A stretch of 64,000 nucleotides of DNA from an uncultured Alphaproteobacteria bacterium. Its GTDB lineage: Bacteria > Pseudomonadota > Alphaproteobacteria > HIMB59. The position numbers and the translations under genes are program-made. The DNA is taken from assembly GCA_902555695.1 (NCBI GenBank), contig CACDTV010000001.1:83559-147558 (forward strand). Reading direction: 5' to 3'. A model generated the notes under the pieces. It was not told the origin of the DNA. It saw only the letters and a list, made by a program, of their open reading frames with translations, and ran no database searches. Shown here piece by piece: positions 9,742 to 64,000 of this stretch; within the stretch, counting starts at the first letter, position 1; each line of letters opens with the position of its first letter.

Positions 9742-10259
9742 CTGAAGTAATCCGATCTGATGGTATTGAAATAAAAAAAAAAGTTATTCAACAAATTCTG
9801 TTAAGAGGATCTGGTGACTCAAAATTTAATAATCACATAAACAAATCTTTAAAGCTTTTACCACCATCAGATAATTTAAGGATTATTTCAAATGATAATT
9901 ATACTTTAGCAAAAATGTCTTTTGATCAATGGAATTTAATATTTGAAAAAGAAATTGAAATTAAAAAGCTCAACAAAATATTAGATGATTTAAATAAATC
10001 ACCCTTAATATTAGCTACAAATATTTCGGACTCACAAGTATTTTTTGAAATTCAAGGTAAAAATAGTTTTGATATATTAAATAAATTAACGCATTTTGAC
10101 TTTAGAGAAAAATCCTTTAAAAAATCTACTGCCGCACAAACATTATTAGCTAGAGTAGATTGTTCTATTTTTAATCTTGATCTTAAATTGTTACTTAGTT
10201 GTAATCGATCATTTGCTGACTATCTTGAGGATCGTCTTATTGACGCGGTTAACTATTAG
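9738..10259 (+). CDS. soxG: Sarcosine oxidase gamma subunit
   Basis: Follows soxA; TNISD, AQTLLARVD, RSFADYL motifs. Confidence 0.85.
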   Translation: MTEVIRSDGIEIKKKVIQQILLRGSGDSKFNNHINKSLKLLPPSDNLRIISNDNYTLAKMSFDQWNLIFEKEIEIKKLNKILDDLNKSPLILATNISDSQVFFEIQGKNSFDILNKLTHFDFREKSFKKSTAAQTLLARVDCSIFNLDLKLLLSCNRSFADYLEDRLIDAVNY

Positions 10260-10272
10260 GTTTTTTTTCATA

Positions 10273-10302
10273 TTGACATCAAATTTTGGAACTGATTAGG
10301 TA
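10273..10302 (+). promoter_or_regulatory. Putative sigma70 promoter
   Basis: Perfect TTGACA at 10273-10278 with a weak -10 (TAGGTA) 18 nt later; AGAGGA ribosome-binding site before the ATG at 10318. Confidence 0.45.
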
Positions 10303-10317
10303 TTTTTAGAGGAATAA

Positions 10318-12792
10318 ATGGCAAGAAAATCAAGAATAATAATCGTTGGTAGTGGTATTGTTGGAGCGAGCACCGCCTATCACTTAGCTCAATTGGGTTG
10401 GAAAGATATGGTTATACTTGATCAAGGGCCATTGTTTGAAACTGGAGGCTCTACAAGTCATGCACCAGGAGGTGTGTTTCAAACTAATCCCTCACGAATG
10501 ATGTGTAAATTTGCGCAGTACACAGTTGACTTACTTAGATCCTTGTCATTTGAGGGAAAACCTTGTTTTCATACTGTTGGAGGAATTGAAGTATCAAAGA
10601 CAAAAGAGAGACATCAAGACCTTTATCGAAAACTTGGCATAGCTCACAGTTATGGATTAACTGATGCAAAAATAATTACTCCAGATGAAGTTTTAAAAAT
10701 GAGCCCGTATATTGATCCAGAAAAAATTCACGGGGGATATTATGTTCCAACTGATGGTTTAGCAGCACCTGTGAGAGCAGTACGGGCAATGGCAAAATAT
10801 GTGACTGATTTAAAAGCAGGCGAATTTTTTGGTGATACAGCAGTTAATGGTTTTAAAATTCAGAATAATCAAATTCGTGGTGTGCAAACGTCTAAGGGTG
10901 ATTATGAGGCCGATATTGTACTTGTCTCAACTGGTATCTGGGCTCCAAAAATGGGAAGGCTTGCTAACATATCATTACCTTTAGTTCCATGTGAACATCA
11001 AATGGTGTGGTTAGAGCCGTTTGAAGAATTGAAAGAATTTAAAGCTGATCATAAGGAGGCTTTGGTTGAACATGCATTGATGCGTCACCAAGATTACAGT
11101 CTCTATTTTAGACAATGGAATGATACTTATGTTATTGGAAATTATCGACATGAACCCAGAATTTTAGAGTCAGAAGAACTAAAGAAACCTGAAGATGCTG
11201 AAGAAATGCCCTCACTGGTAGACTTTAGACCTGATGATTTTGAAGGTGCACATAAAGAATCAAATTGGTTGTTCCCAAGATTTTCTGAAAAAAAACTTAC
11301 AAAAAAAATTAATGGAATTTTTTCATTTACAACAGATGGTAACCCTTTAATGGGTGAGACAAGTGTAAAAGGTTTGTGGACCGCCAATGCTGTATGGATT
11401 ACACATGCAGGTGGTGTTGGAAAAGCTATGGCAGAATGGATAGTGAATGGTGAGCCTGAACTAGATGTTCGCCAAGGAGACATAAATCGTTTTCATCAAC
11501 ATCATCATGTTAGAAAATATCTAAGATCAAGAGGTAAGCAGAATTACAAAGAGGTATATGACATTATTCACCCGCTGCAACAAATGGAGCAGCCAAGACC
11601 ACTACGAAGAAGTCCATTTTATGCTAGATTAGAAGGACAAAAAGCACATTTCTTTGAGACTATGGGCTGGGAAAGACCTCAATGGTATGAGTCAAATGCT
11701 GAATTAATGAAAGGTAAAAACTTTCCAAATAGAACAGGCTGGGCTGCAAAATATTGGTCACCAATTCAAGCAGCTGAACATCTTGTAACAAGACAAACAG
11801 GTGCCCTGTTTGATATTACAGGATTTGTGAAAATTGAAGTAAGTGGAAAAGGTGCTCTTAAATTATTGCAGAAAGTTTGCACAAATAATATTGATGTTGC
11901 CGTAGGTAAAGTTGTTTATAGCGTAATTTCTAATATGTATGGTGGTATTAAGAGTGATCTTACAATTAGTAGACTTGAGGAAAATAAATTTTGGGTCTTG
12001 GCAGGAGCTGGGAATGGAATGATTGATATTAGTTGGCTTCGAGTAAATGCTCCTGATGATGGAAGTGTTCAGATAATAGATTGGACATCTGCTTTTGCAG
12101 GTATTGGCTTATGGGGGCCAAATTCAAGATCTGTTCTTGAAAAACTGTGTGATGATGATGATGTATCTAACGAAGGTTTTCCGTTCTTCCATATTAAAAA
12201 GATTTCAATCAGTAACATTCCTTGTGTTGCTGTAAGAATATCTTATATAGGTGAATTAGGTTGGGAAATATATACACCCACCGAGTATGGGCTATCATTA
12301 TGGGATGAACTTCGAGAAATCTCAAGAGAGTTCAACATGATTTGCTCAGGCGCTGGTGCTTTTGAGTCACTCAGATTGGAGAAAGGCTATAGATCACTTG
12401 GAACAGATATTCATACTAATTACAACCCTTATGAGTCAGGCTTAGGCTTTACTGTGAAGCTTAAAAAAGAAAATGAGTTTATTGGCAAAACTGCACTTCA
12501 AAAAATAAAAGAAAAACCAATTGAAAAGAGACTTACTTGTATGATTATTGATGACCCTGAAGGAATGGCCTTGGGCACAGAACCGATTTATTCAAATGGT
12601 AAAGCTGTAGGGTACGTTACAAGTACAAATTATGGCTATTTTGTTGATAAACACATTGTTTATGGATATTTACCAACAGAATTGTCAGAAAAAGGAAATA
12701 AGTTAGAGGTCGAGTACTTTGGCAAAAGGTATCCATTAACAGTTACTGAGGAACCTTTGCTCGACCCAGAAAATAATAGATTAAAGTCTTAA
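10318..12792 (+). CDS. Dimethylglycine oxidase/dehydrogenase family (FAD oxidoreductase plus GcvT domain)
   Basis: DQGPL..GGSTSHAPG.VFQTNPS flavinylation motif, HQ and RHQD..LY dyad region, SFTTDG, C-terminal GcvT domain (SYIGELGWEIY, SLRLEKGY). Confidence 0.85.
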   Translation: MARKSRIIIVGSGIVGASTAYHLAQLGWKDMVILDQGPLFETGGSTSHAPGGVFQTNPSRMMCKFAQYTVDLLRSLSFEGKPCFHTVGGIEVSKTKERHQDLYRKLGIAHSYGLTDAKIITPDEVLKMSPYIDPEKIHGGYYVPTDGLAAPVRAVRAMAKYVTDLKAGEFFGDTAVNGFKIQNNQIRGVQTSKGDYEADIVLVSTGIWAPKMGRLANISLPLVPCEHQMVWLEPFEELKEFKADHKEALVEHALMRHQDYSLYFRQWNDTYVIGNYRHEPRILESEELKKPEDAEEMPSLVDFRPDDFEGAHKESNWLFPRFSEKKLTKKINGIFSFTTDGNPLMGETSVKGLWTANAVWITHAGGVGKAMAEWIVNGEPELDVRQGDINRFHQHHHVRKYLRSRGKQNYKEVYDIIHPLQQMEQPRPLRRSPFYARLEGQKAHFFETMGWERPQWYESNAELMKGKNFPNRTGWAAKYWSPIQAAEHLVTRQTGALFDITGFVKIEVSGKGALKLLQKVCTNNIDVAVGKVVYSVISNMYGGIKSDLTISRLEENKFWVLAGAGNGMIDISWLRVNAPDDGSVQIIDWTSAFAGIGLWGPNSRSVLEKLCDDDDVSNEGFPFFHIKKISISNIPCVAVRISYIGELGWEIYTPTEYGLSLWDELREISREFNMICSGAGAFESLRLEKGYRSLGTDIHTNYNPYESGLGFTVKLKKENEFIGKTALQKIKEKPIEKRLTCMIIDDPEGMALGTEPIYSNGKAVGYVTSTNYGYFVDKHIVYGYLPTELSEKGNKLEVEYFGKRYPLTVTEEPLLDPENNRLKS

Positions 12793-12810
12793 CTATTATA
12801 TTTTAAAAAT

Positions 12811-13692
12811 ATGATCAAAGAAAATATTGTTTCTTTAGTGGATGGCTTTACCATAGAGCTTAACCCAAAAGTAAGACACAAACTAAAGTCGATTCCTTTA
12901 GATAAAAAAAATAATGTCTACATAACATATTTACCCGATGCTACGGAAAACGACATTTTAGAAACTGTTGATTTTGTATCTAAACAAGAATTAACTCCTA
13001 TTACTCATTTGCCTGCAAGGACAATGAGAGATTTAGATCATGTTTCAGACTTCCTAAAAGAACTTAGAAATAGAACAGATAGCAAAAAAATTCTTGTTAT
13101 AGGTGGTGGAGGTAATCAGAATGGATCAGTATCATCATCACTGGAAATACTAGAGTGTGGTTTATTAAAGGATAATGATTTTGAAGAGATAGGAATAGCT
13201 GGACACCCTGAAGGCTCACCTGATATTGATCAAAATACTGTGAACGAATTTTTGAACAAAAAATATGAATTATCGAAAGATAAGAATTTAAATTTAGAAC
13301 TTGTTACTCAGTTTTTCTTTAATGCCGAACCATTTATCAAATGGTGTAAATTTTTAGATAATTCAAATATAAAATTACCAGTCAGAGTAGGCTTTCCAGG
13401 CCCGGCGTCTTTTAAAACACTTCTTAATTTTGGGATAATGAGCGGTGTTGGAAATTCATTAAGTTTTCTAAAAAAGAACTCATCTAAAGTAACTGACCTT
13501 TTGACAAAAACTTCAAACGATGAAATGTTTATTGAATTAGCAAATTTCTCTAAAGAACAAAGTTCATTTAAAAATTTTCACTGCTTTCCTTTTGGTGGCT
13601 TCGAGAAGACCTGTCATTGGTTAAATGCTCTTCAAAATGGTGATTTTATTATGGAAAATGACAAAATAGTCCTCCACAATAAAATCTTTTAA
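12811..13692 (+). CDS. metF: Methylenetetrahydrofolate reductase-like protein
   Basis: THLPAR, GIAGHPEGSP, VTQFFF, PVRVGFPGP, HCFPFGG. Confidence 0.8.
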   Translation: MIKENIVSLVDGFTIELNPKVRHKLKSIPLDKKNNVYITYLPDATENDILETVDFVSKQELTPITHLPARTMRDLDHVSDFLKELRNRTDSKKILVIGGGGNQNGSVSSSLEILECGLLKDNDFEEIGIAGHPEGSPDIDQNTVNEFLNKKYELSKDKNLNLELVTQFFFNAEPFIKWCKFLDNSNIKLPVRVGFPGPASFKTLLNFGIMSGVGNSLSFLKKNSSKVTDLLTKTSNDEMFIELANFSKEQSSFKNFHCFPFGGFEKTCHWLNALQNGDFIMENDKIVLHNKIF

Positions 13693-60521: not shown

Positions 60522-60836
60522 GTGAGCACTCCGAAAAATGTAAAATGCTGCAAATGCGGCAAAATTTTGAAATTTAGATTAGAGGGTTATGCAACACCTA
60601 GTGAATTTGTATTAGATGAAAAAGATGTAGATGGAATGCCAGTATTTTTATGTGGTTCAATAAAAGGATGTAGATTTAAAATTGACCCAGTTGATTATAT
60701 GAAAAATCGAGGAAACGATAATCACATAGTAAAAACAGTTGACGCTGATCTAGATTTTTCGAATTGGGACTTTGAAAATTTACCAACAAAAAAAATCAAG
60801 AGATCTATATTTCATAAAGTAAAAAAATTCATCTAA
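60522..60836 (+). CDS. Hypothetical Cys-containing protein
   Basis: 104-aa ORF with CCKC and CxxxxxC; TATAAT 6 nt before the GTG. Confidence 0.55.
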   Translation: MSTPKNVKCCKCGKILKFRLEGYATPSEFVLDEKDVDGMPVFLCGSIKGCRFKIDPVDYMKNRGNDNHIVKTVDADLDFSNWDFENLPTKKIKRSIFHKVKKFI

Positions 60837-60837
60837 A

Positions 60838-61329
60838 TTAATTAAATTTACTTCTCCATTTATTGTAATATTTATTCCATTTATTTAATAACTTTTGTGC
60901 CTCAAAGGCTTTGTGATTATTTTCGTATTTATATTCTGTATAATAATCAATTAGTAATATGTGAGCCTTTCTAAAATATTTCTCATATTTTTTTTTTAAA
61001 TCTTTATTAAATAAACTAGTATCTACTCTGTCTAAATAGTAATTTTCTACATCATACGAATATTTTAATGATTTTTTTAAAAGACCTATTAATTCTACTC
61101 TATCATAATAATCAAAAACTCCAGTCCTATCTGCTTTATCAATTATTTTCATTGCTTGATTATATGTATTTAGAGAAATGATAAAGTTATCTCTCGATTT
61201 TATTAATCTTTCTTGCTCATCAGCGTATAAAAAATTAGTGCTAAAAAAAAACAAAATATAGTTTAAAATAATCAATGTGAAAAATTTTTTATTATTTGCG
61301 GTATACATAATACTCACCTTATATGGCAT
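60838..61329 (-). CDS. Hypothetical exported protein
   Basis: Hydrophobic signal-like segment ending LYA-DE, then a helical domain; start uncertain. Confidence 0.5.
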   Translation of the reverse strand: MPYKVSIMYTANNKKFFTLIILNYILFFFSTNFLYADEQERLIKSRDNFIISLNTYNQAMKIIDKADRTGVFDYYDRVELIGLLKKSLKYSYDVENYYLDRVDTSLFNKDLKKKYEKYFRKAHILLIDYYTEYKYENNHKAFEAQKLLNKWNKYYNKWRSKFN

Positions 61330-61606: not shown

Positions 61607-61834
61607 TTATTTCCCATATTTAGGAATGACAGGAGGCTCGGGCTCCTCTGGCAATGTACATTGCTCTTTGTTAGCGGGTAATTCATCAAAAGGGCGTGTT
61701 ACCCAGATGTGTGAAAAAATAATATCCCCGTTTTCATTTTGAAAGCATTTCTTACCAAAATGAAGTTGGCTGTGATTTTGTTCATCTGCAACATACAAGA
61801 ATAAAACTGCTGCTAGAAAATGTAAAAAAGTCAT
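61607..61834 (-). CDS. Small hypothetical exported or membrane-anchored protein
   Basis: N-terminal hydrophobic segment, two Cys, Pro-rich tail; ATGA overlap with the upstream gene. Confidence 0.55.
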   Translation of the reverse strand: MTFLHFLAAVLFLYVADEQNHSQLHFGKKCFQNENGDIIFSHIWVTRPFDELPANKEQCTLPEEPEPPVIPKYGK

Positions 61835-62430
61835 GTTTTTAGTCCTTTCTGAGAATTGTTTAGGCTAGCAGAGATGGGATCAGGTATTTTTTTGCAATGC
61901 CTATGCGCTCTGTCCATCGCTTCCTCTACTTGAGGCATGGCCCACTGTATTGTAGGCAAGTCTATGAATGTTCTTAAAGCTACTGGTTCCTCGAAAGAAA
62001 CATCAGTGACTGTTAAGCGAGAGCGTTTATGAAAAGTATAATATTCTTTAATCGTTTCATGTTTATATGAACCCATGCCTATTAAAATCATGTGTCCATT
62101 CTTATATGGATATATTTCATGCACCATTCCAGTGGTTGAATGACCATTTTCCAGAAGCTCAATTTCTTTATCTAATAATTTTGTGAGATCAGGGTGAACT
62201 GATAAGGTAAATAATTCAAAGAATTGAAGCACACGATCACAATTATTTTTTGTCATAACAAAAATAATATTTTCTGAGTCTTCAACATCACCACTACGTT
62301 CCATTGCAATCATTTCCTCCTCCAATAATTGAATATTCCAACCATGAAATCTTTCTAAAGTCATCGCTGAGCTTAAGGAGACAATAAATAAAGAGGTAAT
62401 TATTAGTATTAAGTATTTTCCTCTTTGCAC
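61831..62430 (-). CDS. Hypothetical exported protein
   Basis: The GTG at 62430 gives the signal peptide MQRGKYLILIITSLFIVSLSSA; the frame stays open to 62610 through the inserted element. Confidence 0.65.
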   Translation of the reverse strand: MQRGKYLILIITSLFIVSLSSAMTLERFHGWNIQLLEEEMIAMERSGDVEDSENIIFVMTKNNCDRVLQFFELFTLSVHPDLTKLLDKEIELLENGHSTTGMVHEIYPYKNGHMILIGMGSYKHETIKEYYTFHKRSRLTVTDVSFEEPVALRTFIDLPTIQWAMPQVEEAMDRAHRHCKKIPDPISASLNNSQKGLKT

Positions 62431-62601
62431 CACGGCTAATGTACAGGAGGATGGGATTAGCCGTAGCACAGAAAGGAACCATGAAAAAACCACCTCAATT
62501 TTTCCTCTCTCTTTTTTTTGTTTGTCATTTATTAACCTGGTAGGAAATGACTTAGAGAAGGAGTAACTAGAAAACAGAAAGGAAGAGAGAGGTCTTTGCA
62601 C
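62422..62601. other. Structured insertion-like element flanked by 9-bp direct repeats
   Basis: TCTTTGCAC at 62422-62430 and 62593-62601; internal stems ACGGCTAAT/ATTAGCCGT, CCTCTCTCTT/AAGAGAGAGG and GTCATTT/AAATGAC. Confidence 0.5.
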
Positions 62602-62656
62602 TAAAGACAAAGATATTAATTTTTAAAAATAAAGATTGGGGAGAAATTAATTAATT

Positions 62657-64000
62657 TTAGACAGGAATACTTGTCCCGTAAAAATTCCAATTTTTTGTAA
62701 TCCCCCACCATAAAATAACCAAAAAAAGATGATAGGTTATTGGGACAAACCACCGAAGTTTACTATCGATTGTATTATAGAGACCAGTTTGTTTATCCCT
62801 ATGATAGTCCCAATAGCTCCATATAGTTATCATGGTAGATAAGCCAGCAAATAAATATGAAAGTAAAATCCAAGCATCTAAAATAGTGATATAGTTTAAT
62901 TTTGGAACATCGTCTCCAAATACAAAGTTGTAGGCAACCAAAGTTAATAAACTACCCATTGAAACTGCCAGCTTCGACTCTAACTCTCTTGCCCTGATGT
63001 AAAAAACACTAAAGGATAGGTAGACTAGGAAGATCACTGGAAGAATGATCTTTAAAATATAGTAAAAAGATTTGCGATTGAGATCAAAACTGTATTCGAG
63101 TGTTTGAAGCACTCCTTGCCCATAAAGTTGAGTATCACAACAGTTTAAACGGTGGTCATTAATTTCCCATTCATACAAAATTTCATTGCCCTCCATCATA
63201 CTAAACTCTGGGTTGTATCGAGGAGAGGTACTTAAATCAACATCTTGAAATATAAAATCGGCAGATGTTGAGATATTATCAAAAGGGAATTTTCTAAAAT
63301 CGGAGGAGTTAGTTACCTGATAATTAATTTGTTGTTTGAGAACAAAATTAAAAGGATCAGATTTATCATTTGTAATAAGTAAGCTTTTAAAAGTAATATC
63401 ATTTATGAAAGATCCTGTTTGCGTAGTTTCAAAAGTAGGATACCAAATTTTTTGTAAAATATTTTCAAGTTCGGCTGATTTTCTGAAAATACATTTGATA
63501 GGTGATTTATTAAGATCTGTTAAATTGAAAAAATTATGTATTAAATCTTCATTTTGCCACTGCAAATTCACCTCTAAATTTAAATTTGATTTACTACTTT
63601 GCTGAGTTACCTCAAAATCATTTAATATTATATCTGCCTCGACTATAGGGTGACCTAGATAAGGAATTCTTTTTAGATCAACTATCTCCTCTTCCCCATC
63701 TAAATGTTGAACAGTTAATGAGAGATCTCTCATTGCTGAGGTTTCTAGTAAGTTGGATAAATACAAGTAAGCATCGGTATCATTTGAGGCAACCGGTTTT
63801 TGATCAACAGCTAAAATACGATCTCCCACCTTAAGTGGGGTATTAAAAGCGAAGGAACCAAAGCGTTTTTTGTTGATAATAGGTTGATTTTGCTCAAGAA
63901 CTACACCACTGTCGTTATAAGCAAGCCTTATGTTAGACGTTTCCCTGAAGTCTTTTTTTAAAAGTCGTTCACAAATTTCTGCTCCCCAGCTAACACTGGA
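62657..64000 (-). CDS. Pentameric ligand-gated ion channel (Pro-loop receptor) subunit with N-terminal PDZ-like domain, 5'-truncated
   Basis: IWYP, FRKFPFD Pro-loop, EW, pre-M1 Arg, M1 with Pro (KIILP), M2 LLTLVAY, M2-M3 PKLNYITILD, M4. PDZ-like LKVGDRILAVD. The frame is open to the window end. Confidence 0.88.
   Translation of the reverse strand, partial: SSVSWGAEICERLLKKDFRETSNIRLAYNDSGVVLEQNQPIINKKRFGSFAFNTPLKVGDRILAVDQKPVASNDTDAYLYLSNLLETSAMRDLSLTVQHLDGEEEIVDLKRIPYLGHPIVEADIILNDFEVTQQSSKSNLNLEVNLQWQNEDLIHNFFNLTDLNKSPIKCIFRKSAELENILQKIWYPTFETTQTGSFINDITFKSLLITNDKSDPFNFVLKQQINYQVTNSSDFRKFPFDNISTSADFIFQDVDLSTSPRYNPEFSMMEGNEILYEWEINDHRLNCCDTQLYGQGVLQTLEYSFDLNRKSFYYILKIILPVIFLVYLSFSVFYIRARELESKLAVSMGSLLTLVAYNFVFGDDVPKLNYITILDAWILLSYLFAGLSTMITIWSYWDYHRDKQTGLYNTIDSKLRWFVPITYHLFLVILWWGITKNWNFYGTSIPV

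Follow-up and report, generated by a model that had tools for sequence, protein, structure and literature searches.

Among bacterial ion channels of the pentameric ligand-gated type (pLGICs), GLIC, sTeLIC and DeCLIC are gated by triggers such as pH or ions, and proton gating of GLIC is established. For bacterial pLGICs in general, little is known of either the physiological ligands or the roles, and DeCLIC is the only one with an extra domain, its N-terminal domain (NTD), that has been partly characterised (sections of PMC12664993). Pelagibacter pLGICs are mentioned in sections of PMC4795631, which states that terminal parts were discarded. The term 'PDZ' is absent from the main texts of PMC12664993, PMC4795631, PMC549065, PMC13712998, 10.64898/2026.08.15.744057 and PMC10734472, and no PDZ-bearing pLGIC was found in the literature searched (titles, the starts of abstracts, and main texts); supplements, or the DeCLIC paper (10.1073/pnas.1922701117), could list the architecture. 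The first-pass annotation, which knew of no characterised PDZ-pLGIC, agrees with this literature.

Here we describe a relative of the animal neurotransmitter-gated ion channels from an ocean bacterium. The protein belongs to the Pro-loop superfamily; its architecture, in which a PDZ-type domain is built into the extracellular part of the channel, is undescribed in the literature searched. With this family one can ask whether a pLGIC can be gated by a protein-interaction domain of its own, and of what use such a channel is to streamlined ocean bacteria.

The gene and its product

The window, that is the whole stretch of 64,000 nucleotides analysed, holds most of the channel gene at its end:
62657..64000, minus strand: pLGIC gene, in-window part (open frame; in window-equivalent coordinates the full gene spans 62657-64042, which is L001:3216-4601)
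63980..64000, minus strand: window part of a predicted Sec signal peptide, residues 1-21 (by eye and hydropathy; residues 1-14 lie outside the window)

The minus-strand frame had been reported to stay open past a GTG (63829) to the window end, and the translation indeed reads as described. From the contig sequence the full gene encodes 461 amino acids from a TTG start, with 42 nt (14 residues) beyond the window. A long unseen N-terminus is ruled out, there being only these 14 additional residues, and the stop-to-stop frame in the source genome (G000, contig C1) adds just 18 codons past the window end. The start position is the same in 28/28 related loci (27 TTG, 1 ATG), and a single nucleotide separates it from the stop of the upstream gene. 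Residues 1-21 look like a Sec signal for export, which, combined with pLGIC topology, would place the C-terminus that follows M4 in the periplasm, along with the N-terminal domains. One channel copy was found in G000, which fits a homopentamer. Contigs in 4/4 marine metatranscriptomes cover pieces of the gene, contigs of this kind showing neither transcription nor its level.

The channel core

The core of the protein comprises the following features:
63074..63649, minus strand: pLGIC extracellular beta-sandwich, residues 132-323 (PDB sequence matches, AlphaFold model, Foldseek, family alignment)
63491-63493, minus strand: codon of Cys184
63278-63289, minus strand: Pro-loop FPFD, residues 252-255
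62696..63070, minus strand: four transmembrane (TM) helices (Pfam, PDB alignment, AlphaFold model), with M2 at about 62915-62983

The pLGIC signature combines a [F/Y]PxD Pro-loop motif with a pre-M1 arginine (sections of PMC4795631), and both are found here, as F252-P253-F254-D255 and R323. P253 and R323 are kept in 100% of 123 representatives, obtained by dereplicating 194 full-length proteins at 75% and leaving out P0108. The extracellular domain (ECD) also contains IWYP at 199-202 (W200-x-P202) and W292. Among PDB sequences the strongest matches are to sTeLIC (E 2.8e-15), GLIC, the GABA-A beta3 subunit and DeCLIC. The AlphaFold monomer model (mean pLDDT 75, pTM 0.66, 39 sequences) consists of a beta-sandwich and four TM helices (residues 325-348, 354-376, 387-416 and 424-449). 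In Foldseek searches with the full model the top matches (E about 1e-17) are all pLGICs; their TM-scores, taken by query length, are modest at 0.3-0.4. Of the two Pfam channel families that were to be checked by HMMER, Neur_chan_memb passes (28.4 bits against a cut-off of 28.1) and Neur_chan_LBD gives no match for the query at E<=1; the cut-off of 26 for the latter is passed by homologues such as P0119 (37.2 bits) and P0125 (27.3). A beta-sandwich ECD followed by four TM helices is thus found by AlphaFold, Foldseek and Neur_chan_memb, and the earlier identification of a complete pLGIC from IWYP, FPFD and four TM helices is confirmed by the motifs, Neur_chan_memb, the PDB matches and the model.

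To set the register of M2, residues were numbered backwards from the M2-M3 proline in the alignment rows of GLIC and sTeLIC, using a prime numbering which we take to be the standard one. It gives E355 at -2', K357 at 0', G363 at 6', L366 at 9', A370 at 13' and F373 at 16', so that the assignment made by eye (L9', A13', F16' and Glu at -2') agrees with these rows. Position -2' is Glu in the query and Gln in 5/28 alleles. From E-2' alone, we infer that the channel may prefer cations.

The ECD contains four cysteines only (24, 184, 301 and 302), and a Cys-loop disulfide flanking the beta6-beta7 loop is not present. Two further features concern these residues:
63956..63979, minus strand: N-terminal helix with Cys24 (codon 63971-63973), AlphaFold helix 20-29, with a predicted disulfide to Cys184
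63137..63142, minus strand: vicinal Cys301-Cys302 in mid-beta9 (AlphaFold model, alignments)

Cys24 is retained in 99% and Cys184 in 93% of the 123 representatives, and the pair is also kept in relatives that have no PDZ domain, so that a Cys24-Cys184 disulfide likely clamps the N-terminal helix to the ECD. In nicotinic alpha-type subunits the vicinal cysteines sit at the tip of loop C. The pair C301-C302 lies within beta9 (292-307) in the AlphaFold model, short of the beta9-beta10 turn (308-309) by 6-7 residues, and is found in 27/28 members of the window subfamily without being conserved across the wider family. It is therefore ruled out as the nicotinic loop-C pair, being in mid-strand rather than at the turn and restricted to the subfamily; the earlier doubt over this equivalence, raised because the pair lies about 7 residues early, was justified.

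The inserted PDZ domain

The extra domain lies between the N-terminal Cys helix and beta1:
63671..63925, minus strand: inserted PDZ domain, about residues 40-124 (Pfam, profile search, Foldseek, VIA)

The first-pass annotation had proposed a PDZ-like domain fused to a pLGIC; the domain type stands, and the arrangement is an insertion after the Cys24 helix rather than a fusion at the terminus. A PDZ fold is supported by both sequence searches and models. Against Pfam PDZ_2 the query scores 17.1 bits (E 0.007), below the cut-off of 27, and close homologues pass the Pfam PDZ cut-offs (P0045 with 27.5 >= 27, P0049 with 23.5 >= 23.2). Among 97 distant representatives a Pfam PDZ match at E<=0.003 occurs in 13, and 6 are over a cut-off. 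An iterated PDZ HMM, a procedure that can drift, matches 166/194 full-length proteins and 0/194 reversed controls. A profile of residues 22-131 from 15 sequences matches 262 entries of the PDB at E<=1; among those listed, 60 in number, all are PDZ-containing proteins, judged by name, and the top one is the RseP PDZ tandem (E 6.5e-7).

The region had been open to failing to model as a PDZ fold. The domain model (pLDDT 70) matches PDZ folds with a Foldseek probability of 1.0, the nearest being bacterial protease-type PDZs (CtpA/CtpB, HtrA/DegS, RseP). VIA, used with the domain model only, aligns 82 residues of 3ch8 (Z 8.3, rmsd 2.6) and 84 of 6bxg (Z 8.2, rmsd 3.0), and its 50 listed matches are PDZ-containing entries. 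Since these Z values alone are middling, the PDZ call rests on the uniform identity of the matches together with the sequence evidence.

The carboxylate loop of the query, D44-S45-G46-V47, is degenerate, and the first Phi of the x-Phi-G-Phi pattern is Ser or Gly in 27/28 subfamily sequences. Across the 123 representatives of the wider family the residue before the Gly is hydrophobic in 80, the Gly itself is present in 83%, and the residue after it is hydrophobic in 123/123. This canonical-looking loop suggests that ligand binding by the PDZ could be ancestral in the wider family. Residues Y92, L95 and L99, which would lie on the groove helix, are conserved in 22, 24 and 27 of 28 subfamily sequences.

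Family, host range and tree

The first search returned 107 homologues, and a profile search gave 8,663 matches, of which the best 150 were taken. Channel matches occur in 36/70 other genomes of the HIMB59 genus, and 5/11 near-complete genus genomes carry a channel. The named carriers of the close form are assigned to HIMB59 in sections of PMC10734472, and identities of 99% in protein and 96% over the locus would place G000 there too. Among 301 sampled SAR11 (Pelagibacteraceae) genomes 30 have a match, 18 of them full-length. In 401 sampled Alphaproteobacteria genomes there are 7 matches outside the genus, which look PDZ-less as they start at profile position 153 or later and lie in frames of 365-410 aa. 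The survey of marine genomes that had been suggested thus finds the PDZ-pLGIC architecture in HIMB59 and SAR11 and not, by these signs, in the matches from the other Alphaproteobacteria sampled. In viral contigs, 20 pattern matches to the channel were found, with none confirmed.

A FastTree tree built from 141 rows and 313 columns of the channel core, with an insect channel as root, nests PDZ-less forms that keep the clamp at four places: P0063, which is sister to the window subfamily (0.97); P0115, sister to P0111 (0.98); P0200; and the weakly supported group P0151/P0155/P0225/P0230/P0235. With relatives nested in this way in a single-method tree, the PDZ looks dispensable, and looks to have been lost repeatedly. 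Together with the degenerate carboxylate loop, the nested PDZ-less relatives favour an accessory or modulatory role over that of an obligatory gate, and the PDZ would likely tune channel opening without being essential to it.

Several other forms were seen in the family. A second, divergent PDZ-pLGIC paralogue lies about 4.5 kb downstream in some loci (L022:9579-13385; L002 and L026 about 10000-13384); it carries an H-G-I-G-L loop and is accompanied by a CII-like gene of its own, and in L022 a PrsW-like gene follows it. Frameshifted channel copies occur in two single-cell assemblies (L012:6001-7390 and G047:C7:42021-43407), either as a pseudogene or through sequencing error. In P0109 (681 aa) pentapeptide repeats are fused to a pLGIC.

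The C-terminal tail and mosaic alleles

After M4 the protein ends in a short segment:
62660..62695, minus strand: periplasmic post-M4 tail with Trp452, ending [I/L]-x-Val-COOH (homologue alignments)

This C-terminus is found in 32/52 full-length close homologues; the other 20 comprise 18 with a swapped TM allele, 1 with an aberrant end and 1 that is shortened. W452 and V461 are invariant and 455-458 variable among the 28 tail-bearing sequences chosen for alignment, so positions 0 and -2 are fixed and the linker varies. Hydrophobic residues at 0 and -2 are the class II PDZ ligand pattern. In the AlphaFold monomer model the tail is undocked (pLDDT<50 at 453-461). The PDZ-less sister P0063 is also without the tail, and most of the wider family ends otherwise than in [I/L]-x-V. 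Many SAR11-type members (P0145, P0152, P0201 and relatives) have a post-M4 segment that resembles an amphipathic periplasmic helix, ends in Arg/Lys and is possibly a latch.

The 18 tail-less alleles are mosaics with another TM module. DNA identity in L013 is 96-98% over residues 1-200 and 45-69% over 321-440. In L026 and L027 the first 40 codons are 92-93% identical in nucleotides and the rest is replaced (39-72%), the PDZ windows being at 39-61% and the upstream flanks at 94-97%. In L013-L017 and L026-L030 the replacement between near-identical flanks takes in either just the pore module or nearly the entire gene, and it changes M2 at 13' and 15'. On these comparisons, alleles have exchanged their pore modules. 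Sisters that naturally have no PDZ, alleles without the tail and exchanged pores provide ready-made controls.

Neighbouring genes

The channel lies in a small cluster:
64044-64508 in window-equivalent coordinates (L001:4603-5067, beyond the window), minus strand: F1, CII-like regulator, 154 aa, whose stop lies 1 nt before the channel start
L001:5173-5496 (beyond the window): HTH_25 gene, divergent from F1
61831..62610, minus strand: F2, downstream gene, probably exported
61607..61834, minus strand: F6, small downstream gene of the same cluster, 75 aa
61488..61577, minus strand: tRNA-like element of 90 nt that closes the cluster; it has an acceptor stem, both D and T arms, a CCA end and a variable, enlarged anticodon region

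The CII-like regulator is the most constant neighbour of the channel. F1 is directly upstream in 28/28 HIMB59 loci with upstream DNA, with the divergent HTH_25 gene beside it, and the two together resemble a phage-type switch. The CII-like match is weak, with E 0.056 in Pfam and, for a homologue, E 0.003 in PHROG. F1 and the channel occur together in 34/37 genomes of the genus, which as kin are not independent, and an F1 homologue lies within 1.5 kb of 15/18 full-length SAR11 loci; F1 is also present in SAR11 genomes without a full-length channel (21 of 37). The CII-like family marks accessory islands, both with and without the channel, in 37/71 HIMB59 and 37/301 SAR11 genomes.

F2 is 3' of the channel in 29/29 HIMB59 loci and has no Pfam, PHROG or PADLOC match, with atlas leads under 0.9 only. 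PADLOC run on 14 channel-locus proteins gave only a generic HTH, in 1 of them. The tRNA-like element was missed by ARAGORN in the window, is called as tRNA-Trp(cca) in L021 and reaches 44 bits against Rfam tRNA in L018; it occurs in 27/33 related loci, a set of 10 sequences shows 4 compensatory pairs, and G000 has a separate, normal tRNA-Trp. Window positions 60522-61329 hold ORFs of 104 aa with Cys pairs (plus strand) and 163 aa, probably exported (minus strand), between the cluster and a 3-hydroxyacyl-CoA dehydrogenase-like gene. Most related loci have other genes there, and the region is a variable insertion point.

The PrsW protease family was considered as a partner. It is rejected for the window subfamily, as PrsW is adjacent to 0/29 of its genes and was not found in G000 (71% complete); it occurs anywhere in just 11/29 of the subfamily genomes. 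Elsewhere PrsW lies within 1.5 kb of 7/18 full-length SAR11 loci and beside 8/11 lower-scoring paralogue loci in HIMB59, and 16/17 PrsW-positive genus genomes carry a pLGIC.

Possible roles of the PDZ domain

We tentatively favour a homopentameric, cation-preferring channel of the inner membrane in which an apical PDZ crown modulates gating on binding periplasmic proteins or peptides, a reading that falls a little short of being probable. The Pro-loop subunit, with its PDZ between N-terminal helix and beta1, would assemble as a homopentamer in the inner membrane, the five PDZ domains crowning the periplasmic apex and the Cys24-Cys184 clamp coupling them to the ECD. The basal trigger would be pH or ions, as in GLIC, sTeLIC and DeCLIC, and engagement of periplasmic proteins or peptides by the PDZ would then tune gating. 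There is precedent for control from the apex, as nanobodies on the N-terminal helix and MIR of alpha7 are allosteric modulators (parts of 10.1101/2023.01.03.522595), and the NTD of DeCLIC appears to accelerate gating (sections of PMC12664993). The apical PDZ site is where these engineered binders modulate alpha7. Retention of the domain across a very divergent family (166/194) supports a modulatory crown, while the degenerate loop in 27/28, the PDZ-less forms at four places and an RseP tandem as the closest listed sequence match count against it; no ligand or partner gene was identified. In a second reading, which we consider rather unlikely, the PDZ binds no ligand and serves as a structural cap, covering the vestibule as a steric filter, spacer or anchor, with gating by pH, ions or small molecules only; the degenerate loop and the RseP match also speak for it. 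The RseP PDZ tandem works as a size-exclusion filter (parts of PMC7728848), and apparent repeated loss together with wholesale exchange between alleles (39-61% nucleotide identity in the PDZ of L026/L027 and 95-97% in the upstream flanks) also fits a cap, but the x-Phi-G-Phi pattern kept in most of the 123 divergent representatives and the conservation of Y92, L95 and L99 do not.

The tail offers another way to read the PDZ, in which the channel's [I/L]-x-Val end docks on a PDZ, either that of its own subunit or that of a neighbour, and keeps the channel in one state until other C-termini compete it off. Its class II-like ending in 32/52 close homologues, fixed at 0 and -2, and its absence together with the PDZ in P0063 are in keeping with such a self-latch. 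However, the attachment point of the PDZ is where beta1 begins, at the apex of the ECD, while M4 is followed by only ~12 residues, so by known pLGIC dimensions the tail is probably too short; the monomer model leaves it undocked, it is missing from alleles whose PDZ is near-identical (L013; L020 is truncated), and most of the wider family ends differently. The post-M4 segment of alpha7 latches onto the Pro-loop (parts of 10.1101/2023.01.03.522595), and a latch of that kind, or a tag for another periplasmic protein, would explain the tail equally well, and we regard a self-latch as distinctly improbable. A more far-reaching version, that the channel is gated by protein C-termini, its own tail latching the crown in HIMB59 and damaged or phage-derived periplasmic C-termini releasing it, we regard as an unlikely idea of small weight; if true, a C-terminus-gated channel of the neurotransmitter-receptor type would serve envelope surveillance in some of the ocean's most abundant cells. 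The patchy presence of the channel (5/11 near-complete genomes), its tight CII-like linkage and its modular allele replacement could alternatively point to a defence or stress effector, an island-cargo channel through which the cell would be depolarised once its PDZ has sensed proteins derived from phages or from damage. This too is improbable, as apart from a generic HTH PADLOC has no match for the channel or its neighbours, no copy in viral contigs was confirmed, and the CII-like identity of F1, which also occurs apart from full-length channels, is weak. Coupling to a PrsW-family protease, which would make the C-termini read by the PDZ or cleave the channel, is suggested by the SAR11 and paralogue loci and by the 16/17 PrsW-positive genomes with a pLGIC, but with PrsW beside none of the 29 subfamily genes, in only 11 of their genomes and not found in G000 it is highly improbable.

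Comparison with known systems

sTeLIC (PDB 6FL9) resembles the window channel over residues 219-446 (E 2.8e-15), with identical G6', L9', A13' and F16' and a Pro-loop without Cys-loop cysteines; it differs as a 320-residue chain without an inserted domain, without Glu at -2' and with Asp at 2'. GLIC (e.g. PDB 3EAM, 4HFI; E about 3e-13 to 5e-12) shares Glu -2', Ala 13' and the same ECD-TMD motifs, but has no PDZ and has Ile at 9' and 16', where the window channel has Leu and Phe. The PDZs of CtpA/CtpB, HtrA/DegS and RseP are alike in fold and profile matches, whereas the window protein has no protease domain, its host is an ion channel and the loop of its subfamily is degenerate. The domain-bearing pLGICs of PMC549065 likewise carry extra sensor domains on a pLGIC core, but these are small-molecule binding domains fused N-terminally.

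DeCLIC (PDB 6V4A, 9FTG; E 2e-12) is alike in joining an extra periplasmic modulatory domain to a pLGIC. Its two terminal jelly-roll lobes, which bind calcium, are not present in the window channel, where a single inserted domain of about 85 residues models and searches as a PDZ. HIMB59 and SAR11 hold a large, divergent pLGIC family with a different kind of extra module, a fold of the peptide-binding type at the apex.
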